The position numbers and the translations under genes were made by a program. The notes under the pieces are model-generated. The model was not told the DNA's origin. It did no database searches and was given only the letters and a program-made list of their open reading frames with translations. Below, one piece after another: positions 10,170 to 60,118 of a DNA stretch of 64,000 bases. How positions within the stretch are numbered: position 1 is the first letter of the stretch; each line of letters opens with the position of its first letter. Origin of the DNA: Pseudomonadota bacterium (GTDB lineage: Bacteria > Pseudomonadota > Alphaproteobacteria > Acetobacterales > Acetobacteraceae); the NCBI GenBank assembly GCA_021805545.1, contig JAJZFB010000037.1:21191-85190 (forward strand), given 5' to 3'.

Positions 10170-10250
10170 CGCCAGACCGGCCCAGAACTGCTTGTTATTT
10201 GTTAAGAATTAAATGGTTATGACTCAATAATACCGGAACCGGCTCGAATC

Positions 10251-10287
10251 GGGGCGCCCGTGCTTGGCACTGGCGCCCCTTTATTTT
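10251..10287 (+). terminator. rho-independent terminator after the ridA-like gene
   Basis: GGGGCGCC-CGTGCTTGGCACT-GGCGCCCC followed by TTTATTTT. Confidence 0.7.
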
Positions 10288-10485
10288 GTACGATTTTGAG
10301 ACGATAGGAAATTTGTCATAAGTTCTGCCTTTACACTTAGTGTAAATCAAAATTTTGCCATTGATGTGGCATTTTTGCCGCAGCTTTGTATTGCGTGTAG
10401 CGCATTCCACCCTTAGCCATGCGGCATGGTTGAAGAACCATTTGTGACAACAGGTTGGGGCAAAATGGCCTTTGAGAGGACGAAG

Positions 10486-11337
10486 ATGATCCGGGTTTCC
10501 GCCCGCACCATGCTTCTGGGCGCCGCTCTGGCCCTGTGTGCATTAACCGTGAGTGCCTTAACCGCCCGTGCGGCCAAGGCCGAAACCCTGCAACACCGCA
10601 GCCATGTGGCTTATACCCGCACATCGTACCACAGCTACCATACCTACCATAGCTATCACGCCTACCACAGCTATCACCATGTAGCGCAGTACACGGCCCG
10701 CCATTTCACCAGCAGCGTGCACCATGTTGCCTATCACCATGTTGCCTATCACCATGTTGCCTATCACCATGTTGCCTATGTGGAACACCGGCATGTGGCT
10801 TACCCGTATCATCGTTACATACATAACACTGCCTATTACCCGCGCGCCGCTGAGTTCCGCCGTTCCAGCTTGCAATGCGTGCCCTATGCGCGTGAAATCT
10901 CGCATATCGACATAACCGGAAATGCCTATCTCTGGTGGGCTGAGGCCGCTGGGCGCTACGCGCGCGGCAACATGCCGCAACAAGGTGCTGTGCTCAATTT
11001 CCGCGCCATTGGCCGCATGCCGCTGGGCCATGTCGCCGTGGTTACCGGCATTATCAACAGCCGCACCATTCTCGTTACCCAGGCCAACTGGGTGCCTGGC
11101 ACAATCACCAACGACGTGACGATACAGGATGTGTCGCCCAATAATAACTGGACGCTGGTGCGTGTGGAACTGGGTGATTCCAGCCGCTGGGGCGCGCCGT
11201 ACCCAACCTACGGGTTCATCTATGACCATCCCGCCATTGGCACTGTTATCGCCGCGAATGGCCAGAGCACCGAGGTGGCGGAAGCCCCGGCGCAGCCCGG
11301 CGTGAGTAACGGCGCGCCTAACCGCAACCTGCAATAA
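10486..11337 (+). CDS. secreted CHAP-domain peptidoglycan amidase/peptidase with His/Tyr-rich repeat linker
   Basis: ATG 10486 is preceded by GAGAGGA. Signal MIRVSARTMLLGAALALCALTVSALTARA. H/Y repeat region. C-terminal LQCVPYAREISHIDITGNAYLWW...GHVAVVTGI matches the CHAP Cys...His arrangement. Confidence 0.75.
   Translation: MIRVSARTMLLGAALALCALTVSALTARAAKAETLQHRSHVAYTRTSYHSYHTYHSYHAYHSYHHVAQYTARHFTSSVHHVAYHHVAYHHVAYHHVAYVEHRHVAYPYHRYIHNTAYYPRAAEFRRSSLQCVPYAREISHIDITGNAYLWWAEAAGRYARGNMPQQGAVLNFRAIGRMPLGHVAVVTGIINSRTILVTQANWVPGTITNDVTIQDVSPNNNWTLVRVELGDSSRWGAPYPTYGFIYDHPAIGTVIAANGQSTEVAEAPAQPGVSNGAPNRNLQ
10720..10779 (+). repeat. perfect 4 x 15-bp in-frame tandem repeat (CACCATGTTGCCTAT = HHVAY) inside the CHAP gene
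   Basis: Read directly: four identical units at 10720-10734, 10735-10749, 10750-10764 and 10765-10779. Preceded by a 6-12 nt periodic YH(S/T/A)YH tract at about 10626-10680. Confidence 0.95.
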
Positions 11338-11426: not shown

Positions 11427-12662
11427 ATGCCTGCCTTCTGCCGTAATTGCGATACCGCCGTAACGGGCCTTGCATGCCCGGCCTGCGGCAGCGTGCGCAT
11501 CGTGCGGCACGGGCAGGTTTTTTCGCTCAGCATCGGGCATATCGATTGCGATGCGTTCTTCGCGTCCGTCGAGAAGCGCGGCCACCCGGAATGGCGGGAT
11601 TTGCCCGTTATCGTGGGCGGCGGCGCGCGCGGGGTGGTTTCCACCTGCTGTTATGTGGCGCGGCTTTACGGGGTGCGTTCGGCCATGCCCATCTTCAAGG
11701 CGCGGCAGCTTTGCCCGCAGGGCATCTTTGTGCCGCCGGATATGCGTAAATACGCCGCTGCCTCGCGCCAGATTCGCGCGATGCTGGAGGCGCTGACCCC
11801 GCTGGTGCAGATGCAGTCGATAGACGAGGCGGTGCTGGATTTGCGCGGCACGGAGAGCCTGCACAAAGCGCCCCCGGCCATCGTGCTCAACCGGCTGGCG
11901 CGGCGTGTGGAGGCGGAGCTTGGCATAACCATCTCCATCGGGCTTGGCCCCAACAGGCTGCTGGCCAAGCTGGCGGCAGAGCGGGGCAAGCCGCGCGGGT
12001 TTTACGTGTTTGGCGACGAGGCCGCCGCCGTTTTGGCACCCGAGAAAGTGGGAATTCTGCCCGGCATAGGCCCGGCGCAGGTAAGGCGGCTGGAGGCGCT
12101 GGGCATAACCACACTGGGCCAGTTGGCAGCACTGGAACCGCATGCCGCGCTGCGGCTGGGCGAGGAAGGGCCAATGCTGGTGGCAAGGGCGCGGGGCGAG
12201 GATGCGCGGGCGGTGAACCCGGGGCGGGAGAGCAAATCGATAAGCGCCGAGACCACATTTGCCACGGATTTGCGGGAGCCGGCGGCGCTGGAGGGCGAGC
12301 TATGGCGCCTGTGCGAGAGACTGGGCCGCCGCTTGCGGGCCGAAAACCAGGCCGCCGCCGGGCTGGTGCTGAAGCTGAAGACCGCGCAATTCATCACCCG
12401 CACGCGCAGCCAGCGCCTGCCCAACCCCACGCAACTGCCGGAGACGATGTTCGAGGCCGCAAGCGCCCTGCTGGCGCGCGAGGCCGATGGCACGGCGTTC
12501 CGGCTGATTGGCATTGGCGCGGCACCGCTGGCCGGCGCCGCTTTGGCCGATAAGGGCGACCTTGCCGACACGCAAACCCCGCGCCGCCGCGCGCGCCAGG
12601 AGGCTATCGACTCCTTACGCGCGCGGTTTGGGGAGTCAGCGATTCGCCGCGGCCGCGCTTAG
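11427..12662 (+). CDS. dinB: DNA polymerase IV (Y-family)
   Basis: 411 aa. HIDCDAFFASVEKR catalytic motif, SIDEAVLDL, and thumb/little-finger region. The N-terminal 35 aa carry CxxC-x8-CxxC if the ATG at 11427 is used. Confidence 0.85.
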   Translation: MPAFCRNCDTAVTGLACPACGSVRIVRHGQVFSLSIGHIDCDAFFASVEKRGHPEWRDLPVIVGGGARGVVSTCCYVARLYGVRSAMPIFKARQLCPQGIFVPPDMRKYAAASRQIRAMLEALTPLVQMQSIDEAVLDLRGTESLHKAPPAIVLNRLARRVEAELGITISIGLGPNRLLAKLAAERGKPRGFYVFGDEAAAVLAPEKVGILPGIGPAQVRRLEALGITTLGQLAALEPHAALRLGEEGPMLVARARGEDARAVNPGRESKSISAETTFATDLREPAALEGELWRLCERLGRRLRAENQAAAGLVLKLKTAQFITRTRSQRLPNPTQLPETMFEAASALLAREADGTAFRLIGIGAAPLAGAALADKGDLADTQTPRRRARQEAIDSLRARFGESAIRRGRA

Positions 12663-13832
12663 GGCGCGGGCCAAATCCTCAATCAAATCCTGCGTATCTT
12701 CCAGGCCCACCGAGAGGCGGATGACCCCATCCGTGATGCCCAGCCTGGCGCGTTCCTCCGGCCCGATGCGCATATGCGTGGTGGTGGCGGGGTGGGTGGC
12801 GAGGGATTTGGTGTCGCCCAGATTGTTGGAGATGGTGATGATCCGCATCGCGTTCATGAAGCGGAAGGCAGCTTCCTTGCCGCCTTCCAGCTCGAATGTC
12901 ACCATCGTGCCGCCGCCGCTCATCTGGCTCATGGCAAGGTTTTGCTGCGGGTGAGAGGCCAGCGTGGGGTACAGAGCGCGCTTCACGCCCGGCGCTTTTT
13001 CCAGGTAGCGGGCAATGGTTTCGGCCGCGGCACCCTGGGCGGCGAGGCGCAGATGCAGCGTCTCCAGCCCTTTCAGCGTAACCCAGGCGTTAAAGGGCGA
13101 CATTGCGGGGCCGGTATTGCGGAAGAAGGGCTGGTACACTTCATCAATCCATTGCTTGCTGCCCAGCACGGCGCCGCCCAGCACGCGGCCCTGGCCGTCC
13201 ATGTGCTTGGTGGTGGAATACACAACCACATCCGCGCCCATTTCCAGCGGCTTTTGCAGCAGCGGGGTGGCGAACACATTATCCACCACCACAATGCCGC
13301 CGGCCTTATGCGTCAGCGCCGCCACTTCGCGCATATCCACAATGTCCAGCATAGGGTTGGAAGGGGTTTCCAGCAGCACCAAAGCGGTGGGCCTGGAGAG
13401 GGCTTCGCGCCATTCATCAAGGCTGGAGCCTTCCACGAACACGGTCTCGATGCCGTATTGGGGCAGCAGGGTGGAGACGATCCAGTGGCAGGAGCCGAAC
13501 AGCGCGCGCGCCGCCACCACGCGGCTGCCCGCCTTAAGCCCGCACAGCAGGGCCGAGCTGACCGCCGCCATGCCCGTTGCTGTACAACGGCAGGCTTCGG
13601 CACCCTCGATCTTGGCCAGGCGCTGCTCCAGCATCTGCACCGTGGGGTTGGCGAAGCGCGAATATTGGAAATGCTGAACCTGGTTGGTGAACACCGCCTC
13701 GGCCTGCTCCGCATTCTCGTAGGCAAAGCCCGAGGTGAGGAACAGGGCCTCGGCGTTTTCATCCAGATTGCTGCGGATGCGCCCGGCATGGATGAGGTCT
13801 GTGGCAAGGCGGGTTTTTGGCGTGTCGGTCAT
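12636..13832 (-). CDS. metZ: O-succinylhomoserine sulfhydrylase / Cys-Met metabolism PLP enzyme
   Basis: ATG 13832-13830 (MTDTPKTRLATDLIHAG...) inside track ORF 12636..13970. YSTTKHMDGQGR PLP-lysine motif. Its 3' end overlaps the dinB 3' end by 27 nt (convergent). Confidence 0.8.
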   Translation of the reverse strand: MTDTPKTRLATDLIHAGRIRSNLDENAEALFLTSGFAYENAEQAEAVFTNQVQHFQYSRFANPTVQMLEQRLAKIEGAEACRCTATGMAAVSSALLCGLKAGSRVVAARALFGSCHWIVSTLLPQYGIETVFVEGSSLDEWREALSRPTALVLLETPSNPMLDIVDMREVAALTHKAGGIVVVDNVFATPLLQKPLEMGADVVVYSTTKHMDGQGRVLGGAVLGSKQWIDEVYQPFFRNTGPAMSPFNAWVTLKGLETLHLRLAAQGAAAETIARYLEKAPGVKRALYPTLASHPQQNLAMSQMSGGGTMVTFELEGGKEAAFRFMNAMRIITISNNLGDTKSLATHPATTTHMRIGPEERARLGITDGVIRLSVGLEDTQDLIEDLARALSAAAANR

Positions 13833-13841
13833 CTTGGCTCT

Positions 13842-13873
13842 CCATTGGTTGCCCAGCCCATTGGTTGCCCAGC
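13842..13873. repeat. perfect 2 x 16-nt tandem duplication (CCATTGGTTGCCCAGC) in the metZ leader
   Basis: Read directly. Lies between the leader terminator and the metZ Shine-Dalgarno sequence. Confidence 0.9.
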
Positions 13874-13902
13874 CAAAAAACACATGGCGGCATACCGCCA
13901 TG
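13874..13902 (-). terminator. intrinsic terminator in the metZ 5' leader (candidate riboswitch expression platform)
   Basis: On the minus strand: CATGGCGG-TATG-CCGCCATG followed by TGTTTTTTGG. Confidence 0.6.
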
Positions 13903-13904
13903 AG

Positions 13905-13973
13905 CCTCTTTAGCGCTTGTTTTGCTCCTGGCCCAAGCCAGCCTCGCCGCAATCCGGCTGGACAAATCACGAG
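13905..13973 (-). promoter_or_regulatory. candidate SAM-II (SAM-alpha) riboswitch upstream of metZ
   Basis: Minus-strand RNA is CCUCGUGAUUUG-(CCAGCC..GGCUGG hairpin)-CUUGGGCCAGGAGCAAAACAAGCGCUAAAGAGG. It contains the GAUUU, GCUUG/CAAGC pseudoknot pairing and GCUAAAG elements I recall for SAM-II, closed by CCUC/GAGG. metZ is a classic SAM-II-regulated gene. Not verified with a covariance model. Confidence 0.5.
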
Positions 13974-14038
13974 GTATATTCCGCCTACGCCCGCCCGCTT
14001 GCGCGGTCAATCCGTCCAGACTAATAGGGAGCCACTGG

Positions 14039-14112: not shown

Positions 14113-14184
14113 GCCATACCTTAAGCCGCTGAAATTAAGCCGTTGAAATCTCATAAAACAAGGTAAATCAAAGGCTTGTTTTGC

Positions 14185-14212
14185 TTGGTGTGATACAAAG
14201 CGGTGCTATAAT
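14185..14212 (+). promoter_or_regulatory. candidate extended -10 promoter (TGcTATAAT) pointing into a non-coding tract
   Basis: TGCTATAAT at 14204-14212, with a weak TTGGTG 16 nt upstream. No ORF follows. Confidence 0.3.
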
Positions 14213-14363
14213 GCCCCCCGTCATGAGCTGACCTTCAAAGCACCCAACAACGGGAGTCTACCGAGTCCGCCAGGCCATCCCCGCACCTCTGCGCGGCGGC
14301 GGAGCGGCTTTTCGGAGTGCGTCGCGAGTTCATTGAGTCTCGTGGCGTTAAGGACGAAGCGCG

Positions 14364-14547
14364 GGACGGCCAGCAAATCAGCTTGAATCGAAGATTTAAG
14401 CTGATCGGATGAAATTGCTCTAGTGTGATGGTTCTGAAATTCGTGATATGAAATATCGCGAATTTCAGAAGCTGGATCACACTAGCTTATTGATTTTTCT
14501 AGTGTCCCGGTTCTGAAATCCAACGGATTTCAGAACCGGGACACTAG
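14364..14547. repeat. mosaic repeat locus 1: module D (inverted, 14364-14423) + A2 (14420-14485) + A1 (14499-14547)
   Basis: A1 is CTAGTGTCCCGGTTCTGAAATCC-AAC-GGATTTCAGAACCGGGACACTAG, a perfect 23-bp stem. A2 is a 66-nt hairpin, CTAGTGTGATGGTTCTGAAATTCG...CGAATTTCAGAAGCTGGATCACACTAG. Both recur elsewhere in the window. Confidence 0.9.
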
Positions 14548-14909
14548 GTGGAAAACTGCAATTCGAGCATCACGCCATGCGGGTCTTTGAGAAAAAGCTG
14601 AGTGACCCCCAGGCCGTTGAAACGGTTGAAGGGAATCTGCAGCGCGTCGAGATGGGCGATCATCGCTTCAGGGTCCGTGCAGCTCAGCGCCACATGGTCT
14701 ATGGGCCCGGTCGGGCCGGGTTCCGTATCGTATTGGCGCAGATGGATGATGGGCTGGTTATTGGCATCCAGCAGCCATTGCGATTGCTCCGGCGCCGTGG
14801 CCATGGGGCCTGTCTTGGCTGAGAGATTCAGCACCTTGGCGTAAAACGCGGCTGAGGCCAGCACATCGCGGCTGCGAATGTTCACATGATTGAGGCCTGT
14901 GACGCTCAT
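14544..14909 (-). CDS. VOC/glyoxalase-bleomycin resistance family protein
   Basis: ATG 14909-14907 gives MSVTGLNHVNIRSRDVLASAAFYAKVL...IDHVALSC...FLKDPHGVMLELQF, a typical VOC fold pattern. Its TAG stop lies in the last CTAG of repeat A1. Confidence 0.75.
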   Translation of the reverse strand: MSVTGLNHVNIRSRDVLASAAFYAKVLNLSAKTGPMATAPEQSQWLLDANNQPIIHLRQYDTEPGPTGPIDHVALSCTDPEAMIAHLDALQIPFNRFNGLGVTQLFLKDPHGVMLELQFST

Positions 14910-14949
14910 CTGGATCCTCCCCCGGCCGGCCGGTGTATCGCCCCTTGTG

Positions 14950-15795
14950 CTAAAGCCCGAATTTGGCCCGGTCAACCTGCGGCTGGCCTATATTCCCGGC
15001 TTCAAAGCTGGCGATTTGCTTGTGAATGAAATCATCCGGCGAGGCCGCCCATTCCAGCAAGGTTGCACGGACTTCAGGATGGGTGGGGATCATGATCCGC
15101 CCGGCCTCCATGCCCTCGGCAAGAATTGTGGCAACCTCCTCCTGGCTTTTCAGCCAGAGATGCCCGCCCGGGCCGCGCATGGGCACGTTCGCGGAGAAGA
15201 TTTTCATGCCATGCGGCGAGGTGGTCATGACCGGGCCAGGGCAAAAACAGCTCACCCGCACCCCCTTGGGGATGGCGTAGATGGCGAGATTCTCCGACAA
15301 GGAAATGACACCGGCCTTGGAGACGGCATACGGAATACGGCTGGCGGCGTAAGGATAAAGCCCGGCGAAGGAAGCGGTGTTGACGATATGGCCGCTGCCG
15401 CGCGCAAGCATTTTGGGCAGAAAGATTTCCAGGCTACGCACCATGCCCATCAGGTTGCAGCCAATCATGCGCTCCCACTCGCTGAAGGGGAAATCCTCTG
15501 GGTTGCCGCTATGCAGCAGCCCGGCATTATTCATGACGATGCCGATCTCGCCCAACGCCGCCTCGGCCGCGGCAGCGGCTTCGCGCAGAGAATCGCTGCT
15601 CGTGACATCGCAGCGCAGGGCAATGGCCTGCCCCCCCTCGGCCTGGATGAGCGCGGCAGCTTCCGTGGCGCCTTCAAAATCGAGATCGGCGATACCGACA
15701 CGCGCGCCGCGCCGGGCAAATTCACGCGCGATGGCGCGGCCAATATTACGCCCGGCGCCAAAAATCAGCGCGCTGTTGCCTGTGAATATGCCCAT
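14950..15795 (-). CDS. SDR family oxidoreductase
   Basis: 281 aa. GAGRNIGRAIA (TGxxxGxG-like) and NNAG motifs, and a YxxxK-type region (YAVSK). Confidence 0.85.
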   Translation of the reverse strand: MGIFTGNSALIFGAGRNIGRAIAREFARRGARVGIADLDFEGATEAAALIQAEGGQAIALRCDVTSSDSLREAAAAAEAALGEIGIVMNNAGLLHSGNPEDFPFSEWERMIGCNLMGMVRSLEIFLPKMLARGSGHIVNTASFAGLYPYAASRIPYAVSKAGVISLSENLAIYAIPKGVRVSCFCPGPVMTTSPHGMKIFSANVPMRGPGGHLWLKSQEEVATILAEGMEAGRIMIPTHPEVRATLLEWAASPDDFIHKQIASFEAGNIGQPQVDRAKFGL

Positions 15796-15970: not shown

Positions 15971-16702
15971 GTGGACGTGGCGGCGGGACGATCGACAATA
16001 GATGCGGCGGCGGCACAGATGCGCGCCATCGTGCTGGCCGCGGAGCCGGACGCGCTGCTGGGGAGCGAGGATGCGCTGCTGGCGCGCCTTGGTGTGTCGC
16101 GCAGCACGGTGAGGCAAATTGCAAGGCTGCTGGAGCGCGAGGGATTGCTGCGGGTAAAACGCGGCATCAATGGCGGTTATTATGGCACGCGCCCCACCAT
16201 TGCCACGGTGCAAACAGCGGTAAGCGCCTATCTGGAAACGCTGGGCATGGAGACGGAAGATCTGGCGACCGTGGCCTCGGTATTATGGGTGGAGGTCATG
16301 CGCCGCGCCGCGCTGCGGCCACGCGAACATGCCCTGCCCGTGGTTGAAACCTTGCGGCGCAAGCTGGAGCGGCTGAAACCAGCGGCGGCATTTGCCGAAA
16401 TAACCAGGCTGGAACAAGAATGCCAGCGCGCCGTGCTGGAACTGGCGCAAAGCCCCTATATCGCACTGATCTTCCAAATCAACGTGGCCTTCGCCGCGCG
16501 CCACTTCACCTCCCCGCCCGCGCCGGACGGCGGCGGAGAACACCGGACCTTCCTGCAGGCTTGGCGCCAAGCCAAAAAAATGGAACTGAGCGCCATAGAA
16601 GATGGCGATGCCGAGCTGGCGGCGCTGGCGGCACGGCATATGCGCAATCTGTGGCACCAACAGCTATGGAATGGCGCAACGCCCACAAAATTCAACCAAT
16701 GA
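15971..16702 (+). CDS. GntR/FadR-family transcriptional regulator
   Basis: 243 aa, GTG start after AGGACGAGG. LGSEDALLARLGVSRSTVRQIARLLEREGLLRVKRGINGGYY winged HTH plus a helical FCD-like C-domain. Divergent from the SDR gene. Confidence 0.8.
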   Translation: MDVAAGRSTIDAAAAQMRAIVLAAEPDALLGSEDALLARLGVSRSTVRQIARLLEREGLLRVKRGINGGYYGTRPTIATVQTAVSAYLETLGMETEDLATVASVLWVEVMRRAALRPREHALPVVETLRRKLERLKPAAAFAEITRLEQECQRAVLELAQSPYIALIFQINVAFAARHFTSPPAPDGGGEHRTFLQAWRQAKKMELSAIEDGDAELAALAARHMRNLWHQQLWNGATPTKFNQ

Positions 16703-16704
16703 GG

Positions 16705-16823
16705 TAGAGCGCGATTCAGACTTTCGAAGCGCGCGCAAAGCGAGCGCATCTCAAGTCATTAAACAAGATTATTGATTGCTCGCCCAAGCAAATTTAGCGT
16801 TTCCGATTGATCGGAAACTCTAG
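16705..16823. repeat. mosaic repeat locus 2: module B (16705-16759) + linker + short CTAG-ended hairpin (16795-16823)
   Basis: B is TAGAGCGCGATTCAGACTTTCGAAGCGCGCGCAAAGCGAGCGCATCTCAAGTCATT. The hairpin is TAGCGTTTCCGAT-TG-ATCGGAAACTCTAG. Confidence 0.8.
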
Positions 16824-17653
16824 CCGTGACGCAAGGCGGCAACCATGCCGCCATCGGCAAGAATATCGGTGCCCGAAATGAAGGACGCGTGATCCGAGAG
16901 CAGAAAAGCGGCAATGCTGGCAATTTCCAGCATTGTGCATTCACGCTTAAGCGGCGTGGCGGCAAGCAGCCTATGTTTACTGGGCGCATTCTTGAATTCG
17001 AGCGCCCCTTGCGGTGTGGCAATGAGGCCGGGGGAAAGCGAGACGATCCGCAACCCCCGCGCGCCCCAAGCCGTTGCCTGGCGCTGGCACATACGGTTGA
17101 GCGCGGCTTTGGAGAGGGCATAGGCCGCAGCGGAAGTCGCGCCCTCGCCCAGCGCTTCATGCAGAGATGGCAAAAACCCGTCCTCAAGAGGAGATTGCAG
17201 CAATGGCCAGAGCGTTTCTTCTACCGGGCCCATATGCGCGGCAGCGGACGAGATGAATAATGCGGCGGCGCCTGGTTGCATGACGGGAAGAAACGCCCGC
17301 GCCACCGTGGCGGCGCCGATGAGGTTGACAGCCATGATGGTGTGAAAATCGGCCATTGAAGGCGAAAGCCCCACCACATTGGCCAGGGCGCGCGCTTTTT
17401 TGGCCGTGGCGGCAAGGCGGGCAACATCCTCTGGTTTGGTGACATCGCAGACCTGCCCGGTAGCGTCATAGCCAGCATCGCGAAGCGCGAGAATCTGGCT
17501 GGTGAGCCGAGGTTCATCGCGGTCGGCGATGTAGAGGCGGTAATCCTGCCCCAGCCGCCGCGCCACTGCCATTCCCAGACCGCCAGCACCGATAACCACC
17601 GCCAGCGGCAGATCAGGCCGCGCGCTGCCGCCAATCTCATGGGCCATTTTCAC
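16820..17653 (-). CDS. SDR family oxidoreductase
   Basis: 277 aa. VIGAGGLGMAVARRL Rossmann motif and YALSKAAL catalytic region. Its TAG stop is inside the terminal CTAG of the hairpin at 16795-16823. Confidence 0.85.
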   Translation of the reverse strand: MKMAHEIGGSARPDLPLAVVIGAGGLGMAVARRLGQDYRLYIADRDEPRLTSQILALRDAGYDATGQVCDVTKPEDVARLAATAKKARALANVVGLSPSMADFHTIMAVNLIGAATVARAFLPVMQPGAAALFISSAAAHMGPVEETLWPLLQSPLEDGFLPSLHEALGEGATSAAAYALSKAALNRMCQRQATAWGARGLRIVSLSPGLIATPQGALEFKNAPSKHRLLAATPLKRECTMLEIASIAAFLLSDHASFISGTDILADGGMVAALRHG

Positions 17654-22690: not shown

Positions 22691-22958
22691 TTAGAGCCGA
22701 TGATTTTAGACCGGATCATGTTGTGATCCGGTCTAAAATCTGAATCCGGCTCTAAATCAATAAAATAGAGCGCGATTCAGACGTTCGAATCGCTCGCAAA
22801 GCGAGCGCATCTCAAGTCACCGCGTTCTAGTGTACCGGTTCTGAAATCCGTTGGATTTCAGAACCATGGTGGACACTAGAAAAATCAATAAGCTAGTGTG
22901 ATTCAGCTTCTGAAATTCGCGATATTTCATATCACGAATTTCAGAGCCATCACACTAG
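22691..22958. repeat. mosaic repeat locus 3: modules C (22691-22755) + B (22766-22830) + A1 (22827-22879) + A2 (22893-22958)
   Basis: All four modules are contiguous. B and A1 share one CTAG. A1 carries a 4-nt insertion in its right arm. The A2-A1 pair here is the reverse complement of the pair at 14420-14547. Confidence 0.9.
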
Positions 22959-27213: not shown

Positions 27214-27491
27214 TTGTGACTCCCAAGATGTAAGCTTCGCATCGATGCGCCTGCCGCAGGGATGCCCCGGCCAAGATTAACCAATTTGTCATACGGCGCA
27301 ACGGTATCTGTGGGAAACAGCTTGGATTCTGACAGGTTTCCAACAAAACCGCCGATTTTTGCCAGACCGCCACAAAGAAAGGCCCATTCCGCCGCCCGCA
27401 TGGGCACGGCCGGAAATGAGCCTTTTGAAAGCGCTTTTCAGGGAGGCGGGCGTAACAGGAGCGCCGCGCTCCCGTTCATCAGGGGGGGTCT

Positions 27492-27670
27492 TAGCGCGAT
27501 GACTTGAGATGCGCTCGCTCTGCGCGCGATTTGAAAGCCTGAATCGCGCTCAACTTCATTGATTGAGAGCCGGATTCAGATTTCAGAGCGGATCACAACA
27601 TGATCCGGCCTGAAATCATCCAGCTTGTGACGGTTCTGAAATCCAACGGATTTCAGAACCGGGACACTAG
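27492..27670. repeat. mosaic repeat locus 4: B (inverted, 27492-27553) + C (inverted, 27563-27627) + A1 (27624-27670)
   Basis: TAGCGCGATGACTTGAGATGCGCTCGCTCTGCGCGCGATTTGAAAGCCTGAATCGCGCTC, then TTGAGAGCCGGATTCAGATTTCAGAGCGGATCACAACATGATCCGGCCTGAAATCATC, then ..GACGGTTCTGAAATCCAACGGATTTCAGAACCGGGACACTAG. Confidence 0.9.
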
Positions 27671-28182
27671 CCTCGCAGCGCGGCGGGTGCCGCCGCAATC
27701 GCTTTATCGATCATTGCGGCACCGTCTTGGGGACCAAAATTTTCCGCCAGCACGGACGCAGAGGCCGCGGTGGCGGCATCTATGGCGATGGCGCGAATTT
27801 CGGCCAGAGCCGAGGCTTCCGCCGCCGCGATCCGCTCGATGGCCATGCGCTCGCGGCGCTTGGCCGCGGCTTCGGCTTCCGCAGCAAGGGCGGCAGCCAG
27901 CGAAGCGGCTTCCACATGCGCGGTTTCGAGGATGGCTTTAGCATCGGCTTCGGCTTGGGCCTGGCGGGCCTTGGCCTCGGCCAGCATGGCCTCGGCTTCG
28001 GCCTTCAGCGCCGCGGCTTCCGCAAGGGCGGCGCTAACGCTGGCGGTGCGGGCGTCGAGCAACGCCGCAATGGCACGCGCGACCTGCCGCCCCGCGATGA
28101 GGGCGAAGATGGCAACGGCGATGAAGACCCAAAACGCGCCGTGAAGGTAGAATATCTTCCCGGTGAGAGCTTCGTAGATCAT
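27667..28182 (-). CDS. atpF: F0F1 ATP synthase subunit b
   Basis: 171 aa. N-terminal TM, then a long Ala/Glu-rich coiled coil. Last gene of the F0 operon. Its TAG stop is inside the terminal CTAG of repeat A1. Confidence 0.85.
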   Translation of the reverse strand: MIYEALTGKIFYLHGAFWVFIAVAIFALIAGRQVARAIAALLDARTASVSAALAEAAALKAEAEAMLAEAKARQAQAEADAKAILETAHVEAASLAAALAAEAEAAAKRRERMAIERIAAAEASALAEIRAIAIDAATAASASVLAENFGPQDGAAMIDKAIAAAPAALRG

Positions 28183-30352: not shown

Positions 30353-31438
30353 TTGCCCGTGGAAATGCCGTGCGAATTGCCGCTCGACCAGATATTACTC
30401 GGCGATGCCGGGGCGATGCTGCGTATGCTGCCGGACGCCTCGGTAAACTGCGTGTTCGCCGACCCGCCCTACAACCTGCAATTGCGCGGCGAGCTGCGCC
30501 GGCCAGATGACAGCCTGGTGGACGGGGTGGACGAGGATTGGGACAGGTTTACCGATTTTGCCGCCTACGACGCCTTTACCCGCGACTGGCTAGGCGAATG
30601 CTACCGGATTCTGCAAAAAGACGGGACCATCTGGGTCATAGGTTCTTACCATAACATCTTCCGCATCGGCGCGATGATGCAGGATATGGGGTTCTGGATC
30701 CTCAACGACGTGATCTGGCGCAAGACCAACCCCATGCCCAACTTTCGTGGCCGGCGCTTCACCAACGCGCATGAAACCATGATCTGGGCCGCGAAATCCC
30801 CCAAAAGCCGGTACAAGTTCAACTACCAGGCCATGAAGACGCTGAATGATGATGTACAGATGCGCTCGGACTGGACCCTGCCGCTATGCACTGGCGCCGA
30901 ACGGCTGAAAAATGCCCACGGGCTGAAGCTGCACCCCACGCAAAAGCCCGAGGCGCTGCTGCACCGCGTTATCATGGCCTCCACCGCGCCGGGGGATGTG
31001 ATTGTGGACCCGTTCCTTGGCACCGGCACCACGGCGGCGGTGGCCAAGCGGCTGCACCGGCATTTTATCGGCATAGAACGCCACCCAGCCTATGTGGAAG
31101 CGGCCTGGGGGCGGCTGAGGGCCGAGTCGCGGGCACCCAAAGCGGCCGTTCTGGCCCCGCCCGCGGGGCGCGAAACCCCGCGCATTGCCTTTGGCAGCTT
31201 CGTGGAACGCGGGATTTTGCCACCTGGCACACAGGTTATGGATAAGCAGCGCCGCATGGCCGCCGAGGTAACGGCGGAGGGCGGGCTGGTTTCTGGCCCG
31301 CATCGCGGTTCCATTCACCAAGTGGGGGCGGCGGTACAAAATGCGCCAAGCTGCAATGGCTGGACCTACTGGCATTTTGAGCGCGGCGGCACGCTTGTGC
31401 CGCTGGATGTGCTGCGCAAAGAAAATCCCGGCGTGTGA
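30353..31438 (+). CDS. ccrM: cell-cycle-type N6-adenine DNA methyltransferase CcrM (GANTC), orphan
   Basis: 361 aa. Near-collinear with my recollection of Caulobacter CcrM: [50 protein letters not shown]-terminal CNGWTYWHF. The start could be TTG 30353, GTG 30359 or ATG 30365. No cognate endonuclease gene is present. Confidence 0.9.
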
Positions 31439-31796: not shown

Positions 31797-31861
31797 TTAG
31801 TGCCGGATGATTTCAGGCCGGATCGCGCGCAAAGCGAGCGCATCTCAAGTCATCGCGCTAG
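31797..31861. repeat. mosaic repeat locus 5: chimera of the left half of C and the right half of B
   Basis: TTAGTGCCGGATGATTTCAGGCCGGATC (C-left) is fused to GCGCGCAAAGCGAGCGCATCTCAAGTCATCGCGCTAG (B-right). Confidence 0.8.
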
Positions 31862-52155: not shown

Positions 52156-52188
52156 CCGCAAAGCACTCTCATCTCAAGCCAAGCGCGG
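52156..52188. repeat. decayed copy of the right half of module B
   Basis: CCGCAAAGCACTCTCATCTCAAGCCAAGCGCG versus CGCAAAGCGAGCGCATCTCAAGTCATCGCG, roughly 80 percent identity by eye. Confidence 0.4.
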
Positions 52189-55473: not shown

Positions 55474-58110
55474 ATGGTCACCAGTAACGATATTCGCGCC
55501 ACCTTCCTCAACTATTTCGGCCGCAACGGCCACCAGATCGTACCTTCGGCCCCCCTGGTGCCGCGCAACGACCCGACTCTGCTTTTCACCAGCGCGGGCA
55601 TGGTGCCGTTCAAAAACCTCTTCACCGGCCAGGAAAAACGCAATTACGTGCGCGCCACCTCGGCGCAAAAATGCGTGCGCGCCGGCGGCAAGCATAACGA
55701 TCTGGACAATGTGGGCTACACCGCCCGGCACCATACGTTCTTCGAGATGCTCGGCAATTTCTCCTTCGGCGACTACTTCAAGGAACAGGCCATCTTCCAC
55801 GCCTGGACCCTGCTGACCAAGGATTTCGGCCTGCCCAAGGAGAAACTGCTCATCACCGTGTACCACACGGATGACGAGGCGGCGGACCTCTGGAAAAAAA
55901 TCGCCGGCATCGGGGATGACAAGATCATCCGCATCCCCACCGACGATAATTTCTGGAAAATGGGCGATACCGGCCCCTGCGGCCCATGCTCGGAAATCTT
56001 CTACGATCACGGCCCCTCCATCCAAGGCGGCCCGCCCGGCACGCCGGATGAAGATGGCGACCGCTTCATCGAAATCTGGAACCTTGTGTTCATGCAGTAC
56101 GAGGAAGGCCCGCCCGGCACGCGCAATCCTCTGCCCCGCCCCAGCATCGACACCGGCATGGGCCTGGAGCGCTTCGCCGCCATCCTGCAAGGCAAGCACG
56201 ACAACTACGACACGGACACACTCCGCGCCCTCATCCTCGCCTCGGCGGAAGAAACTGCCCAAGACCCGGACGGCGCCTTCAAAACCAGCCACCGCGTGGT
56301 AGCGGACCATCTGCGCGCCGCCGCCTTCCTCATGGCCGATGGCGTGCTGCCCTCCAACGAAGGGCGCGGCTATGTGCTCCGCCGCATCATGCGCCGCGCC
56401 ATGCGCCACGCGCACATGATGGGCGCCAAAACCCCGCTCCTGCACCGCCTCGTCCCGGCGCTCACCCGCCAAATGGGCCAGGCCTACACCGAGCTGAGCC
56501 ATGCCGAGGCGCTGATTACCGAAACGCTGGAGCTGGAGGAAAACCGCTTCCGCTCGCTGCTCGACCGCGGCATCTCACTGCTGAAGGACGAATCCCTGAA
56601 CATCGCCAAAGGCGGCGCCCTGCCCGGCGATGTCGCCTTCAAGCTCTACGACACTTACGGCTTCCCGCTCGACCTCACGCAGGACGCGCTGCGCGAAGAG
56701 GGCAAGACCGTGGACGTGGCTGGGTTCGAAGCCGCCATGGCGGCGCAAAAAGCCCGCGCCCGCGCCGCCTGGGCCGGCTCTGGCGAGGCCGCGACCGAAG
56801 CCGTCTGGTTCGAACTGGAACAGCAGCTCGGCCACACGGAATTCCTCGGCTATTCCACTGAAGCCGCCGAGGGTGCCATTACCGCCATTATTGTGGACGG
56901 CCAGCCCGCGCAGGAAGCCCTGCCCGAGCAGACCGTCTATCTGCTGCTCAACCAAACCCCGTTCTATGCCGAATCCGGCGGCCAGGTGGGCGATACCGGT
57001 GTCATCACCGGCCCCGATAATCTGCGCATCCGCATTACCGACACGCAAAAGAAACTCGGCAGCCTGTTCGTGCATACCGGCACGGTGGAGGCAGGCACCG
57101 CCCGCATCGGCCAGCCCGTGCTGGCGGAGGTGGACCATGCCCGCCGTACCGCCATCCGCGCCCACCATTCCGCCACGCATTTGCTGCACGAGGCCCTGCG
57201 CCGCACGCTCGGCGCCCATGTTACGCAAAAAGGCTCGCTCAACGGGCCAGACCGGCTGCGTTTCGACATCGCCCAGCCCCGCCCCATAACAACCGCCGAA
57301 CTGGAAGAGGTGGAGCGCGAGGTAAATGCCCGCATCCGCGAAAACAGTGAGGTGATGACCCGCCTGATGACCCCGGAAGAGGCGGTGAACCACGGCGCCA
57401 TGGCCCTGTTCGGCGAAAAATACGGCGATGAAGTCCGCGTCCTCAGCATGGGCGCGCCCGAGGAGGACAAATCGGGCTGGTCCGTGGAGCTTTGCGGCGG
57501 CACCCATGTGTCGCGCACCGGCGATATCGGCCTGTTCCGCATTGTGTCTGAAGGTGCCGTCTCCGCCGGCATCCGCCGCATCGAGGCTCTGGCGGGTGAG
57601 GCCGCCGTCTCCGCCGTCGAGGATGAATCCCGCCTGCTGGCGGAAGCCGCCGCCACGGTAAAAGCCCCGCCAGCCGAGCTGCCCGCGCGCATCACCCAGC
57701 TCCAGGACGATAAAAAGCGCCTGGAACGTCAGGTGGCCGATTTGCAGAAAAAACTGGTCATGGCCACCGCCACCCAGTTCGAGGATGTGGGCGGCGTGAA
57801 AACCATATTGCGCAATGTGGGCGACATCCCCGCCAAGGAGCTGCGCGCCATCGCCACCGATCTGCTGAAAACCCTTGGCTCGGGCCTCGTTACCCTGGTG
57901 TCCACGGCCGATGATAAGGCCGCCATTGTTGTTGCTGTGTCGGATGATTTATCCGCCAGGCTCGGCGCCGTGGATTTGGTGCGCGCGGCGGCGGCGGCGG
58001 TGGGCGGCCAGGGCGGCGGCGGCAATAAAGCCGTGGCCCAGGCCGGAGGCCCCAATGGCAGCCAGTGGAAAGCCGCGCTCGAAGCCGTGCGCGGAGCGCT
58101 ACAGGCTTAG
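55474..58110 (+). CDS. alaS: alanine--tRNA ligase
   Basis: 878 aa. [28 protein letters not shown], editing-domain HSATHLLH, C-terminal CGGTHV. Confidence 0.95.
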
Positions 58111-58160
58111 AACGCGATGATCTGAGATGCGCGCGCTTCGAACGTCTGAAGCGCGCTCTC
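58108..58160. repeat. mosaic repeat locus 6: module B (inverted, internally deleted)
   Basis: TAGAACGCGATGATCTGAGATGCGCGCGCTTCGAACGTCTGAAGCGCGCTCT. The first TAG is the alaS stop codon. It is followed by the shared linker CCTTCATTGAG. Confidence 0.75.
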
Positions 58161-58172
58161 CTTCATTGAGTT

Positions 58173-58218
58173 ATACCAACGGCCATAAAGGATGGCTCAT
58201 CTTTATGGCCGTTGGTAT
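58173..58218. terminator. 18-bp perfect hairpin between convergent genes
   Basis: ATACCAACGGCCATAAAG-GATGGCTCAT-CTTTATGGCCGTTGGTAT. No U-tract on either side. Confidence 0.6.
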
Positions 58219-58589: not shown

Positions 58590-58849
58590 TATGTTTCTCC
58601 CTATATATTTACATTCAAACAGACCAGCCATTCCGCCGCGCCCAAACTGGCGGGCGCCGCATAAGCATGGCGGTACGCTGCCCCGCCCGCTGGGCCAAGG
58701 GTCGGTTTCATATAATACACAACCGCGCCTGTTACAGCCCAAGCGTATCGCGGAAGATGAAGATGCCAGGCCCGGCAAAAATCACGGCACTCTTCTTGTG
58801 CAAGCCCATCCCCCTTGCGGCACCGCGCAATATGCGCGAAGGCAGGGCC

Positions 58850-59974
58850 ATGGGCACACTCGTAGCGCGCACGCCGCATAAGCGGCCGAAAATCGCAACG
58901 CTGGAGCTGGGCCGCTTCATTGCCGCTTTTTATGTCGTGCTCGCGCATCTGGTGCCAGACGTTAACAGCCGCGCCGCCCCCGGCGCCCTGCAAATCTGGC
59001 ACTGGATCGGCGTAACCGATGGCGCTGTCACGCTTGAATATTTCTTCGCCCTGTCCGGCTTTGTCATGGCCTGCTCACATTGGCAAGATTTTGGCACATT
59101 CGGCGCCCCCTTGCGTTTTTGGTGGAAGCGTATCCGCCGTATTTTCCCGATGTACTGGCTCGGCCTGCTGGTGCCCGTCTATTTCCTGTTCGGTGGGCTG
59201 GAGCCCGGCTATTTTATACGCGTAGCCACCCTGTTACCGGTGAATCTGAACGAACTCATTCCCCCGGCCTGGACGCTGCGGTTCGAGATGGCCTTCTATT
59301 TCATGTTCGGGCTGGGCATGCTGCCTTATGTGGGCAAGCCCATCCTCGCCATCTGGGTTGTGGCCACGCTGTGGCACTGGTGGCCCGCCCATGAGCTTGC
59401 GGCCATGCACCTACAGCAGCCCGCCGCGCTGGCCAAATGGGGCGGCCACGCAGGCCTGCATTTTGTCGATTTTCTTGGCATTTTCTTCTTTTGGGGCATG
59501 GCGGCGGGCTACATATTCGGCCGTTTTACACCTGGGCGGCGCCTTGCTCTGGTGCTCACGCTGGCTGGCGTCACCACCATTGCCGTGCTGCACAAATACA
59601 TCAGTTTCGGCGGCCCGGTACAAACCATCCCCATGTTCGTGCTCATTGGCTTCATCATCGCCACCACCATGCTCGGCTTCGCCTCGCTGGAACAGCACGA
59701 TATGCTACGCCTGCCCCGCATCGCGCTGTGGCTCGGCATAGTTTCTTACCCGCTTTACATCCTGCATGGCTCGCTGCTGATGGTCTTTTGGTATTTCATC
59801 ACCTTCAGCCATCTCAGCTCCGCAGGCGTGGCACTGCTCTTCCTCGGCCTGCTCATCTATCTCTTTACCTTCGCCTCGCTGGCCGCCTTTTTTATCGACC
59901 AGCCATTGCAGCGCTGGATGCGCCGCTGGGGCAAAGCCAAACCGGCAATGCGGGCCGCGCAAAACGCCGCCTAG
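58850..59974 (+). CDS. acyltransferase family 3 (OafA-like) membrane protein
   Basis: ATG 58850 (or 58832) inside track ORF 58508..59974. LELGRFIAAFYVVLAHL, about 10 TM, WTLRFEMAFY motif. Its TAG stop is inside the first CTAG of repeat A1. Confidence 0.75.
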   Translation: MGTLVARTPHKRPKIATLELGRFIAAFYVVLAHLVPDVNSRAAPGALQIWHWIGVTDGAVTLEYFFALSGFVMACSHWQDFGTFGAPLRFWWKRIRRIFPMYWLGLLVPVYFLFGGLEPGYFIRVATLLPVNLNELIPPAWTLRFEMAFYFMFGLGMLPYVGKPILAIWVVATLWHWWPAHELAAMHLQQPAALAKWGGHAGLHFVDFLGIFFFWGMAAGYIFGRFTPGRRLALVLTLAGVTTIAVLHKYISFGGPVQTIPMFVLIGFIIATTMLGFASLEQHDMLRLPRIALWLGIVSYPLYILHGSLLMVFWYFITFSHLSSAGVALLFLGLLIYLFTFASLAAFFIDQPLQRWMRRWGKAKPAMRAAQNAA

Positions 59975-60118
59975 TGTGATGGTTCTGAAATCCAGCGGAT
60001 TTCAGAACCGGGACCCTAGACTCTGACCGGCTTAGGCTGATCTGGTTCTGTTTAGCGAGCAATTTCATTGGTTTGGATGACCCCGGCGATTCAATCCAAA
60101 CCAATGCTCTGGCCTTCC
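59971..60118. repeat. mosaic repeat locus 7: A2/A1 hybrid hairpin (59971-60019) + spacer + module D (60053-60118)
   Basis: CTAGTGTGATGGTTCTGAAATCC-AGC-GGATTTCAGAACCGGGACCCTAG, then TAGCGAGCAATTTCATTGGTTTGGATGACCCCGGCGATTCAATCCAAACCAATGCTCTGGCCTTCC. Confidence 0.85.

Follow-up and report, generated by a model that had tools for sequence, protein, structure and literature searches.

The window analysed here, 64,000 nt of contig JAJZFB010000037.1 from an Acetobacteraceae bacterium (assembly GCA_021805545.1), contains the Pfam domains of cox, atp, fixLJ-fixK, znuABC, recA, alaS, argG and PTS genes and of a ccrM-like methylase, and is thus part of the core chromosome; the best named homologues of atpF and fixJ belong to Acidocella sp. 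(72-82% identity), and we take the source to be an uncultured, Acidocella-like member of the family. Repeats that form hairpins and are bordered mostly by CTAG are present at seven loci of the window. A sequence-only reading had described them as four recurring modules, A1, A2, B and C, joined in mosaics of the BIME, RIME or Correia type. The modules are real repeats, but they are not independent: they are the halves of two composites of about 130 nt, each consisting of a hairpin, a AAATCAATAA-type linker and a second hairpin. Element I is A2, the linker CTTATTGATTTTT and A1 (128 nt), and element II is C, the linker ATCAATAAAA and B (about 137 nt); each has two complete copies in opposite orientations. 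The mosaic architecture held, since the elements are TA-flanked insertions, are both mosaic and nested, and include one composite that is homologous to repeats of the RIME/Sm class.

Profiles of the modules were made from the window copies and searched back against the window with nhmmer. The A profile was found at four places, the A2 profile at two, the B profile at five (E from 8e-23 to 3e-14) and the C profile at two (E about 3e-22), together with a half copy of C at 31797-31824 (E = 0.002); apart from this half copy, the E-values of the supported copies are 1e-14 to 1e-23. The copies listed before were thus recovered within a few bases, including an A1 copy placed at 27624-27670, which exists as 27622-27670 and from which the left CTAG is absent. 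A 'decayed' copy of B at 52156-52188 was rejected as a chance-level match (6 bits, E = 0.98), and the 'eight or more loci' are thereby reduced to seven. A repeat finder detected that A2 with the linker at 14420-14507 is 98% complementary over 88 nt to 22871-22958, in agreement with the inverted pair of A2 copies previously seen at 14420-14485 and 22893-22958, and that C-linker-B at 22699-22824 is 89% complementary over 126 nt to 27495-27620. The A1 copy at 14499-14547 has the perfect 23-bp stem ascribed to it. Folding as RNA gave z-scores of -16.0 for the 281-nt array and -7.3 for 27485-27675, and the single-stranded DNA folds of five single modules and of the full element I had z from -6.6 to -16.9.

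The outer ends of element I are TA-GTGT...ACAC-TA and those of element II are TA-GAGC...GC(G/T)C-TA. The terminal inverted repeats (TIRs) begin directly inside the TA (GTGTSNNGR TTCTGAAAT / ATTTCAGAA YCNNSACAC for element I; GAGCCGGATGA / TCATCGCGC for element II), and the hairpin arms of both elements also act as TIRs. The CTAG 'boundary' is best read as a duplicated TA target within a YTAR site together with the terminal G...C of the element. The CTAG at 22827-22830 is common to a complete element II and the inverted element I that follows it. The solo A hairpins at 27622-27670 and 59971-60019 have a left arm of A2 type (GTGATGG or GTGACGG) and a right arm of A1 type (CCGGGAC); the 'solo' and 'half' copies are thus hybrids of the composite halves that retain both termini. 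Deletion between short direct repeats common to both hairpins, for example GGTTCTGAAAT, may have produced the 49-nt solo hairpins and the C/B hybrid, since it would yield exactly this combination of arms. Transposable elements typically give rise to deletion derivatives in which both termini persist. The 'bulge' of many A hairpins has the same origin as the solo copies, that is, they are hybrids of both hairpins of the composite; in the metagenome-assembled genome (MAG) bin-0429, long/long, short/short and long/short combinations of A hairpin arms coexist.

Empty orthologous sites were found in two relatives, L103 and L106. Site 3, the array at 22691-22958, has fixJ on one side and the gene of a single-domain response regulator on the other. 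In L103, whose FixJ is 92% identical, the spacer between these genes contains CTTTACTGCTAAGCCCGCTCTTTG and the whole array is absent, while on the fixJ strand the window has CTTTCCTGCTA, then a stretch of 264 nt that begins with GTGTGATGG and ends with GGCTCTA, and then AGCGCGGTCTTTG. Once the 264 nt are excised, the remaining 227 nt of the window and 226 nt of L103 form a colinear alignment. L103 reads CTGC-TA-AGCC where the window reads CTGC-TA-(262 nt)-TA-AGCG, so that the target is the TA of CTAA. Site 7, the solo A hairpin at 59971-60019, is empty in L106 (acyltransferase 85% identical), which has ACCGCCTAGCGG; the window has GCCGCCTAG, the insert TGTGATGG...GGGACCCTAG and then ACTC, in the arrangement CTAG-hairpin-CTAG. 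Here, the empty GCC-TA-GCGG corresponds to the filled GCC-TA-(45 nt)-TA-GACT, and the target is the TA of CTAG. Both empty sites fit insertion into the TA of YTAR (CTAA or CTAG), with TA on either side of the insert, and the element borders at the other sites are CTAG, TTAG or CTAA. Furthermore, the same gene ends have been hit repeatedly. At the end of alaS there is a B copy in the window, no element and a TAA stop codon in place of TAG in L106, and D (a further module, see below) with A2 in the MAG ZJ4.bin36. In three species, a palindromic element flanked by TA comes directly after the atpF stop codon, and the three elements are unrelated.

The repeats had been said to occur only between genes. 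They are intergenic, but at five sites the adjacent gene ends with the terminal TAG of the element as its stop codon. The 54 window genes have 13 TAG stops, and five of these are such termini, at 14544(-), 16820(-), 27667(-), 58108(+) and 59972(+). The glyoxalase gene (14544-14975, -) obtains its stop from the right-hand CTAG of element I, atpF (27667-28182, -) from the right-hand CTAG of a solo A hairpin, alaS (55474-58110, +) from the terminal TTAG of the B half at 58107-58172, and the acyltransferase gene (58763-59974, +) from the left CTAG of the other solo A hairpin; the stop of the SDR gene (16820-17653, -) is within the CTAG of the small hairpin at 16799-16823. In the window and related loci together, 18 element termini coincide with the stop codon of a long open reading frame (ORF) with high GC at third codon positions. 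From its base composition, the window should contain about 221 CTAG tetranucleotides; it has 26, and element borders make up 13 of these. The coincidence of elements with gene ends is an observed pattern, the cause of which would be the choice of target discussed below.

Table 1. Positions of the repeat elements and hairpins in the window
Feature	Position	Strand	Support and remarks
Module F, degenerate hairpin of GAGCAA...TTGCTCTAG type	14371..14423	.	Abuts element I
Full element I: A2 14420-14485, linker CTTATTGATTTTT 14486-14498, A1 14499-14547	14420..14547	+	DNA fold -52.7 kcal/mol, z = -16.9
Linker and B half of element II, without C half, 3'-truncated	16694..16761	+	89% to 22755-22819; E = 5e-21
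Small hairpin GTTTCCGATTGATCGGAAAC, then TCTAG	16799..16823	.	Single window copy; family membership uncertain
Full element II: C 22691-22755, linker ATCAATAAAA, B 22766-22830	22691..22830	+	126 nt, 89% to 27495-27620
Full element I, inverted: A1 22827-22879 (one arm 4 nt longer), linker 22880-22892, A2 22893-22958	22827..22958	-	
Full element II, inverted	27491..27627	-	B, E = 2.5e-22; C, E = 2.4e-22
Solo A hairpin, A2-type left arm GTGACGG, A1-type right arm CCGGGAC	27622..27670	+	
Internally deleted element II, left half C fused to right half B, termini TTAG...CTAG kept	31797..31861	+	C half, E = 0.002; B half, E = 3e-14
B half with 11-nt internal deletion, and linker	58107..58172	-	E = 1.1e-14
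Hairpin E, perfect 18-bp stem ATACCAACGGCCATAAAG / CTTTATGGCCGTTGGTAT	58173..58218	.	Single window copy
Solo A hairpin, A2-type left arm, A1-type right arm	59971..60019	+	
Module D, GAGCAAT...ATTGCTC type, decayed right end	60052..60112	+	Aligned with L082/L033 of ZJ4.bin36 and L068 of Acidocella

Additional module types in the window are D, F, hairpin E and the small hairpin listed in Table 1. Module D is absent from L106. Module F resembles by BLAST a CTAGAGCAAC...GTTGCTCTAG module of the Rhodospirillales MAG bin-0429 (L041), a weak likeness for which the hidden Markov model of module D gives E = 2.4. The TGA stop codon of the GntR/FCD regulator gene falls inside the linker of the element II copy at 16694-16761. 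In two related loci, L100 (2017-2204) and L101 (2017-2347), GC-rich palindromes flanked by TA begin at the TAG stop of atpF, for example TA-GGTTAGGGGAGTGA...TCACTCCCCTGACC-TA, which appear to represent other unnamed families of the MITE (miniature inverted-repeat transposable element) kind in Acetobacteraceae.

Hairpins of the A type, which have the general form CTAGTGT-arm-TTCTGAAAT(Y)C-loop-G(R)ATTTCAGAA-arm-ACACTAG, were found in Acidocella, on plasmid pACRY01 of Acidiphilium cryptum JF-5, in Magnetospirillum and Kiloniellaceae, and in several Rhodospirillales MAGs. The composite A2-linker-A1 is also present in the related MAGs ZJ1.bin8 and ZJ4.bin36. In a PLSDB search with element I, the sole match was pACRY01, which has a two-hairpin relative without an adjacent transposase. 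Among the A stems of different genera, 92.8% of the cells are paired and six pairs are changed on both sides, and none of 500 shuffles reached the observed score; the A hairpins are thus preserved between genera through compensatory changes. Literature searches by the core sequence, on palindromes with CTAG tags, and on MITEs of Acetobacteraceae or Magnetospirillum gave no account of the A family. In the Rhodospirillales MAG T7_bin-548 (L034, L035, L057, L090 and L091), many contigs start or end within identical copies of a two-hairpin element, which suggests a recent high-copy burst that breaks the assembly. The start of a Caulobacter sp. CCH9-E1 contig (L077, 1-80) has a long hairpin with a TTCTGAAATCC core and without CTAG ends, which may be a distant relative or a coincidence.

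The modules C and B contain GANTC, the site of the methylase CcrM, and so does one A2 copy, the only one of the six A-type copies of the window to have it. Elsewhere the conserved A core is GATTCTGAAAT...ATTTCAGAATC with two GANTC sites, whereas the window core is GGTTCTG...CAGAACC; thus, the CcrM sites are lost from all A1-type copies (14499-14547, 22827-22879, 27622-27670 and 59971-60019). The window also contains a CcrM-like DNA methylase gene with N6_N4_Mtase and RAMA domains at 30353-31438 (+), and some 360 nt downstream of it is the internally deleted element II.

The most probable explanation of these repeats, to which we assign a probability of about 0.68, is that they are non-autonomous, MITE-type elements with TA as their insertion target and are part of a repeat superfamily spread across Alphaproteobacteria. 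The insertions are precise and flanked by TA at YTAR sites, the inverted repeats extend to the last base, elements are nested through shared CTAGs, and deletion derivatives keep their ends. Elements of the IS630 family duplicate TA, and the preferred target of IS630 itself is the TA within CTAG according to PMC2170065, which cites Tenzen and Ohtsubo (1991) on this point; bacterial MITEs mostly have TA at their termini (PMC2229807). A transposase of the IS630/Tc1-mariner kind that duplicates TA is therefore probably supplied in trans, and the matching transposase element would carry the ends TA-GTGTSNNGRTTCTGAAAT or TA-GAGCNNGATGA. An element G...C inserted into C-TA-G would rebuild CTAG at both borders, so that one target becomes two, and this would lead to nesting and to mosaics with shared CTAGs. 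Because CTAG is scarce in the genome, most new insertions would fall into earlier elements and CTAG stop codons. The TA of TAG and TAA stop codons would offer further targets, and the first G of the element would keep or make a TAG stop; such insertion would place elements exactly on gene ends and leave TAG stops there. Co-transcribed copies would fold into very stable hairpins in the 3' untranslated region. Duplication of all four bases of YTAR by an IS5-type enzyme is less parsimonious, because element II ends with TTAG on one side and with CTAG or CTAA on the other.

Several observations weigh against this explanation. No transposase with matching ends was found in the window or in about 110 retrieved loci. 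The statement of the sequence-only reading that the window lacks a transposase holds for the 57 of 63 ORFs with domains in Pfam-A, among which transposase, integrase and Y1 domains are absent; the other six have no hit. In the approximately 110 loci we found no unpaired half-arms, and the only matching termini 0.6-3 kb apart were in an unrelated Salibacterium locus. A hairpin of 49 nt whose loop has 3 nt is hardly plausible as a substrate of a DDE transposase, and deletion after insertion has to be assumed. A true duplication of TA cannot be told apart from a target ending in TA joined to an element that itself ends in TA, and the IS630-type chemistry is thus a matter of inference only. The relatives with empty sites are different species, the flanks of site 3 are 76% identical, and only two sites are resolved. 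At 27622-27627, where element II meets the solo A hairpin, CATCCAGCT is followed directly by TGTGACGG; exactly the four nucleotides of the expected shared CTAG are missing, a precise loss that the explanation does not account for. Finally, the orientation of the elements with respect to the upstream gene is mixed, so that a strand-specific role of the RNA is unsupported; a strand-specific RNA gene was rejected for the same reason.

One alternative, which we regard as unlikely, is that the repeats are REP- or REPIN-like elements whose single-stranded hairpins are mobilised by a RAYT or IS200/IS605-type HUH (Y1) enzyme encoded in single copy. CTAG would then have the role of the classical GTAG, and insertion would occur 3' of CTAG or CTA, the right end itself being CTA(G). 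Insertion 3' of ...CTA with no duplication would account for the filled and empty sites just as well; however, the symmetry to the last base including the flanking TA (TA-GTGT...ACAC-TA) is the geometry of a DDE enzyme that duplicates TA, and the units of IS200/IS605 and REP have unlike ends. The imperfect hairpins, with one arm longer by 2-4 nt at the same position in several genera, resemble hairpins that are recognised by proteins, but this asymmetry is explained by the hybrids described above, since long/long and short/short forms coexist in bin-0429. Covariation of the stems is in line with this alternative too, and the 49-nt units, as apparently complete insertions, are better suited to a single-strand mechanism than to a DDE mechanism, of which no parent element was found in the loci searched. 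Against this, no Y1 transposase was detected by Pfam among the 63 ORFs of the window, the published REP superfamilies are tagged with GTAG or CGTC and not with CTAG, and the CGTC REPs are reported to be missing from Acetobacteraceae (PMC3733652).

Another alternative, slightly less likely again, is that the repeats are functional elements of the host, namely terminators, stabilisers of mRNA 3' ends or CIR-like sites of CcrM methylation, which are selected at gene ends and spread by gene conversion or recombination. All seven loci are directly 3' of a gene, and the hairpins are extremely stable. On the fixJ strand, B with its U-rich linker has a terminator-like score and, to judge from its sequence, resembles an intrinsic terminator in one orientation; the U tract is, however, missing after most hairpins, and the mixed orientation relative to the upstream gene does not suit such a function. 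Precise presence or absence at TA between colinear flanks is a signature of insertion and not of conversion, and at the same gene end related species have palindromic elements that are unrelated to each other. As for methylation, GANTC is about six times denser in the repeats than in the remaining window, the conserved core is flanked by GANTC in 21 of 24 A-type copies of other genomes, a ccrM-like gene is within the window, and CIR also has two arms with a linker and conserved GANTC (PMC2229807). The loss of GANTC from all but one of the A-type window copies nevertheless argues against an essential role of methylation here. Exaptation after insertion is possible and is compatible with transposition as MITE-type elements. 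Chance similarity or an assembly artefact accounts for the rejected copy at 52156-52188 but is practically negligible for the seven main loci, given profile E-values down to 1e-23, the identical sequence on three independent metagenome contigs (ENA), and homologous copies in the isolates A. cryptum JF-5 (pACRY01), Magnetospirillum and Rhizobium.

Some other features of the window were noted. A sub-threshold match to the alphaproteobacterial SAM-II riboswitch (RF00521; 29.9 bits versus the gathering threshold of 36, E = 0.009) was found at 13916-13983 (-), at the 5' end of a gene for a pyridoxal-phosphate enzyme of Cys/Met metabolism (12636-13970), the listed start of which is probably too far upstream. 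Neither a convincing ORF nor an Rfam match was found in the approximately 250 nt (14113-14370) that separate tRNA-Gly(CCC) from the repeat array. In a CHAP-domain gene (10426-11337), four perfect tandem copies of the 15-nt CACCATGTTGCCTAT at 10720-10779 (+) are in frame and encode the peptide repeat HHVAY. At 10225-10288 (+), there is a weak sub-threshold match to the Bradyrhizobiaceae small RNA BjrC68 (23.1 bits versus the gathering threshold of 39, E = 0.12).

The two empty-site comparisons are direct evidence that repeats of this alphaproteobacterial class insert at TA. Together with them, the anatomy of two composites, the capture of stop codons, and an account of the mosaics by regeneration of CTAG are what this analysis adds; regeneration on both sides would explain the formation of mosaics as well as the many TAG stops that are element ends. 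In practice, such elements break MAG assemblies and should be masked in predictions of small RNAs, terminators and promoters for the genomes of Acetobacteraceae and Rhodospirillales. Screens for rhizobial small RNAs already had to mask repeats of this kind (PMC2573895, PMC2780559).

The sequence-only reading did not recognise any named family in these repeats. For element I this stands, as no published name was found, and its A-type hairpins have no match on any rhizobial plasmid. Element II, however, matches an already described rhizobial family, which lowers its novelty but leaves the interpretation intact. It aligns end to end with a two-palindrome repeat that occurs at 1491 places on 405 plasmid records of Rhizobium and Sinorhizobium, with BLAST identities of 74-89%. 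They have in common the termini YTAGA...GCTCTAG, the left palindrome GGATGATTTTAGGCC...GGCCTAAAATCTGAATCC, a GAATC site and the linker AAATCAA, whereas the interior of the right palindrome (B) is diverged in element II, and the host here is an Acetobacteraceae bacterium. The 'Repeat Sm-5' stretch of pSymB of S. meliloti 1021 (PMC2780559) is built of similar modules bounded by CTAG and GCTCTA. The rhizobial repeats, named RIMEs, Sm-repeats or 'AB, C palindromes', are likewise intergenic and mosaic, and their function is unknown (PMC2573895).

Elements I and II are also comparable, by published description only, with CIR1-4 of Caulobacter and Brucella, which are about 110 bp long, consist of two inverted-repeat arms with a linker, contain GANTC, have terminal TA and occur across alphaproteobacteria, their mobility being given as unknown in the summary of Chen and Shapiro (2003) in PMC2229807. 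The two arms with a linker, the TA ends and the intergenic location are shared. GANTC is conserved in CIR, whereas the A copies of the window mostly lost it, and the comparison of filled and empty sites provides evidence of insertion that, according to the same review, is lacking for CIR (PMC2229807).

Like the Correia/NEMIS elements of Neisseria and the RUP elements, the repeats described here are small, non-coding and flanked by TA, have terminal inverted repeats, would form long hairpins when transcribed, lie next to genes and include internally deleted variants. The TIRs of Correia/NEMIS elements are 24-26 bp long (TATAGTGGATTAAC...), and the long form has an IHF site. This TIR sequence is not matched by the TIRs of elements I and II, and an IHF site in the linker was rejected by direct reading, as AATCAATAAGCTA does not fit the consensus WATCAANNNNTTR. 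Thus, the sequences are unrelated; furthermore, a Correia or RUP element is one end-to-end hairpin, in contrast to the two hairpins with a linker here, and systematic nesting at regenerated CTAGs is a feature of the present elements. RUP of Streptococcus pneumoniae has been attributed to IS630-Spn1. Correia elements, too, have no known cognate transposase (PMC2229807).

With REP and BIME, the present elements share extragenic palindromes in mosaics, conserved linkers, location at the 3' ends of genes and covarying stems. REP sequences are, however, 20-40 nt long with a GTAG or CGTC tag at one end (PMC3733652, PMC2817692), whereas the hairpins here are 49-66 nt long, symmetric and flanked by TA, with CTAG or TTAG at both ends, and no RAYT gene was seen within the 64-kb window. 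Rfam gave no repeat match at the gathering threshold; with E up to 5, only a spurious match of mir-3167 to A1 appeared (26.5 bits versus 86).

A wider possibility, speculative and in our view improbable, is that RIME/Sm, CIR and the CTAG-bounded hairpins of Acetobacteraceae, Rhodospirillales and Magnetospirillum form one superfamily of two-hairpin, TA-inserting elements. They would be moved by a conserved, possibly domesticated transposase that is gated by CcrM methylation of GANTC at the TIR bases, and would land preferentially on the TA of stop codons and rewrite TAA to TAG. Dam gates IS10 in a similar sense. Element II is tied by sequence to the rhizobial RIME/Sm class and both elements are tied by architecture to CIR, that is, to classes whose mobility is unexplained. 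Element II is thus a relative of known rhizobial repeats, and element I is an unnamed lineage in Acetobacteraceae and Rhodospirillales; together they are a new lineage of a repeat type known from alphaproteobacteria and not a new kind of element.

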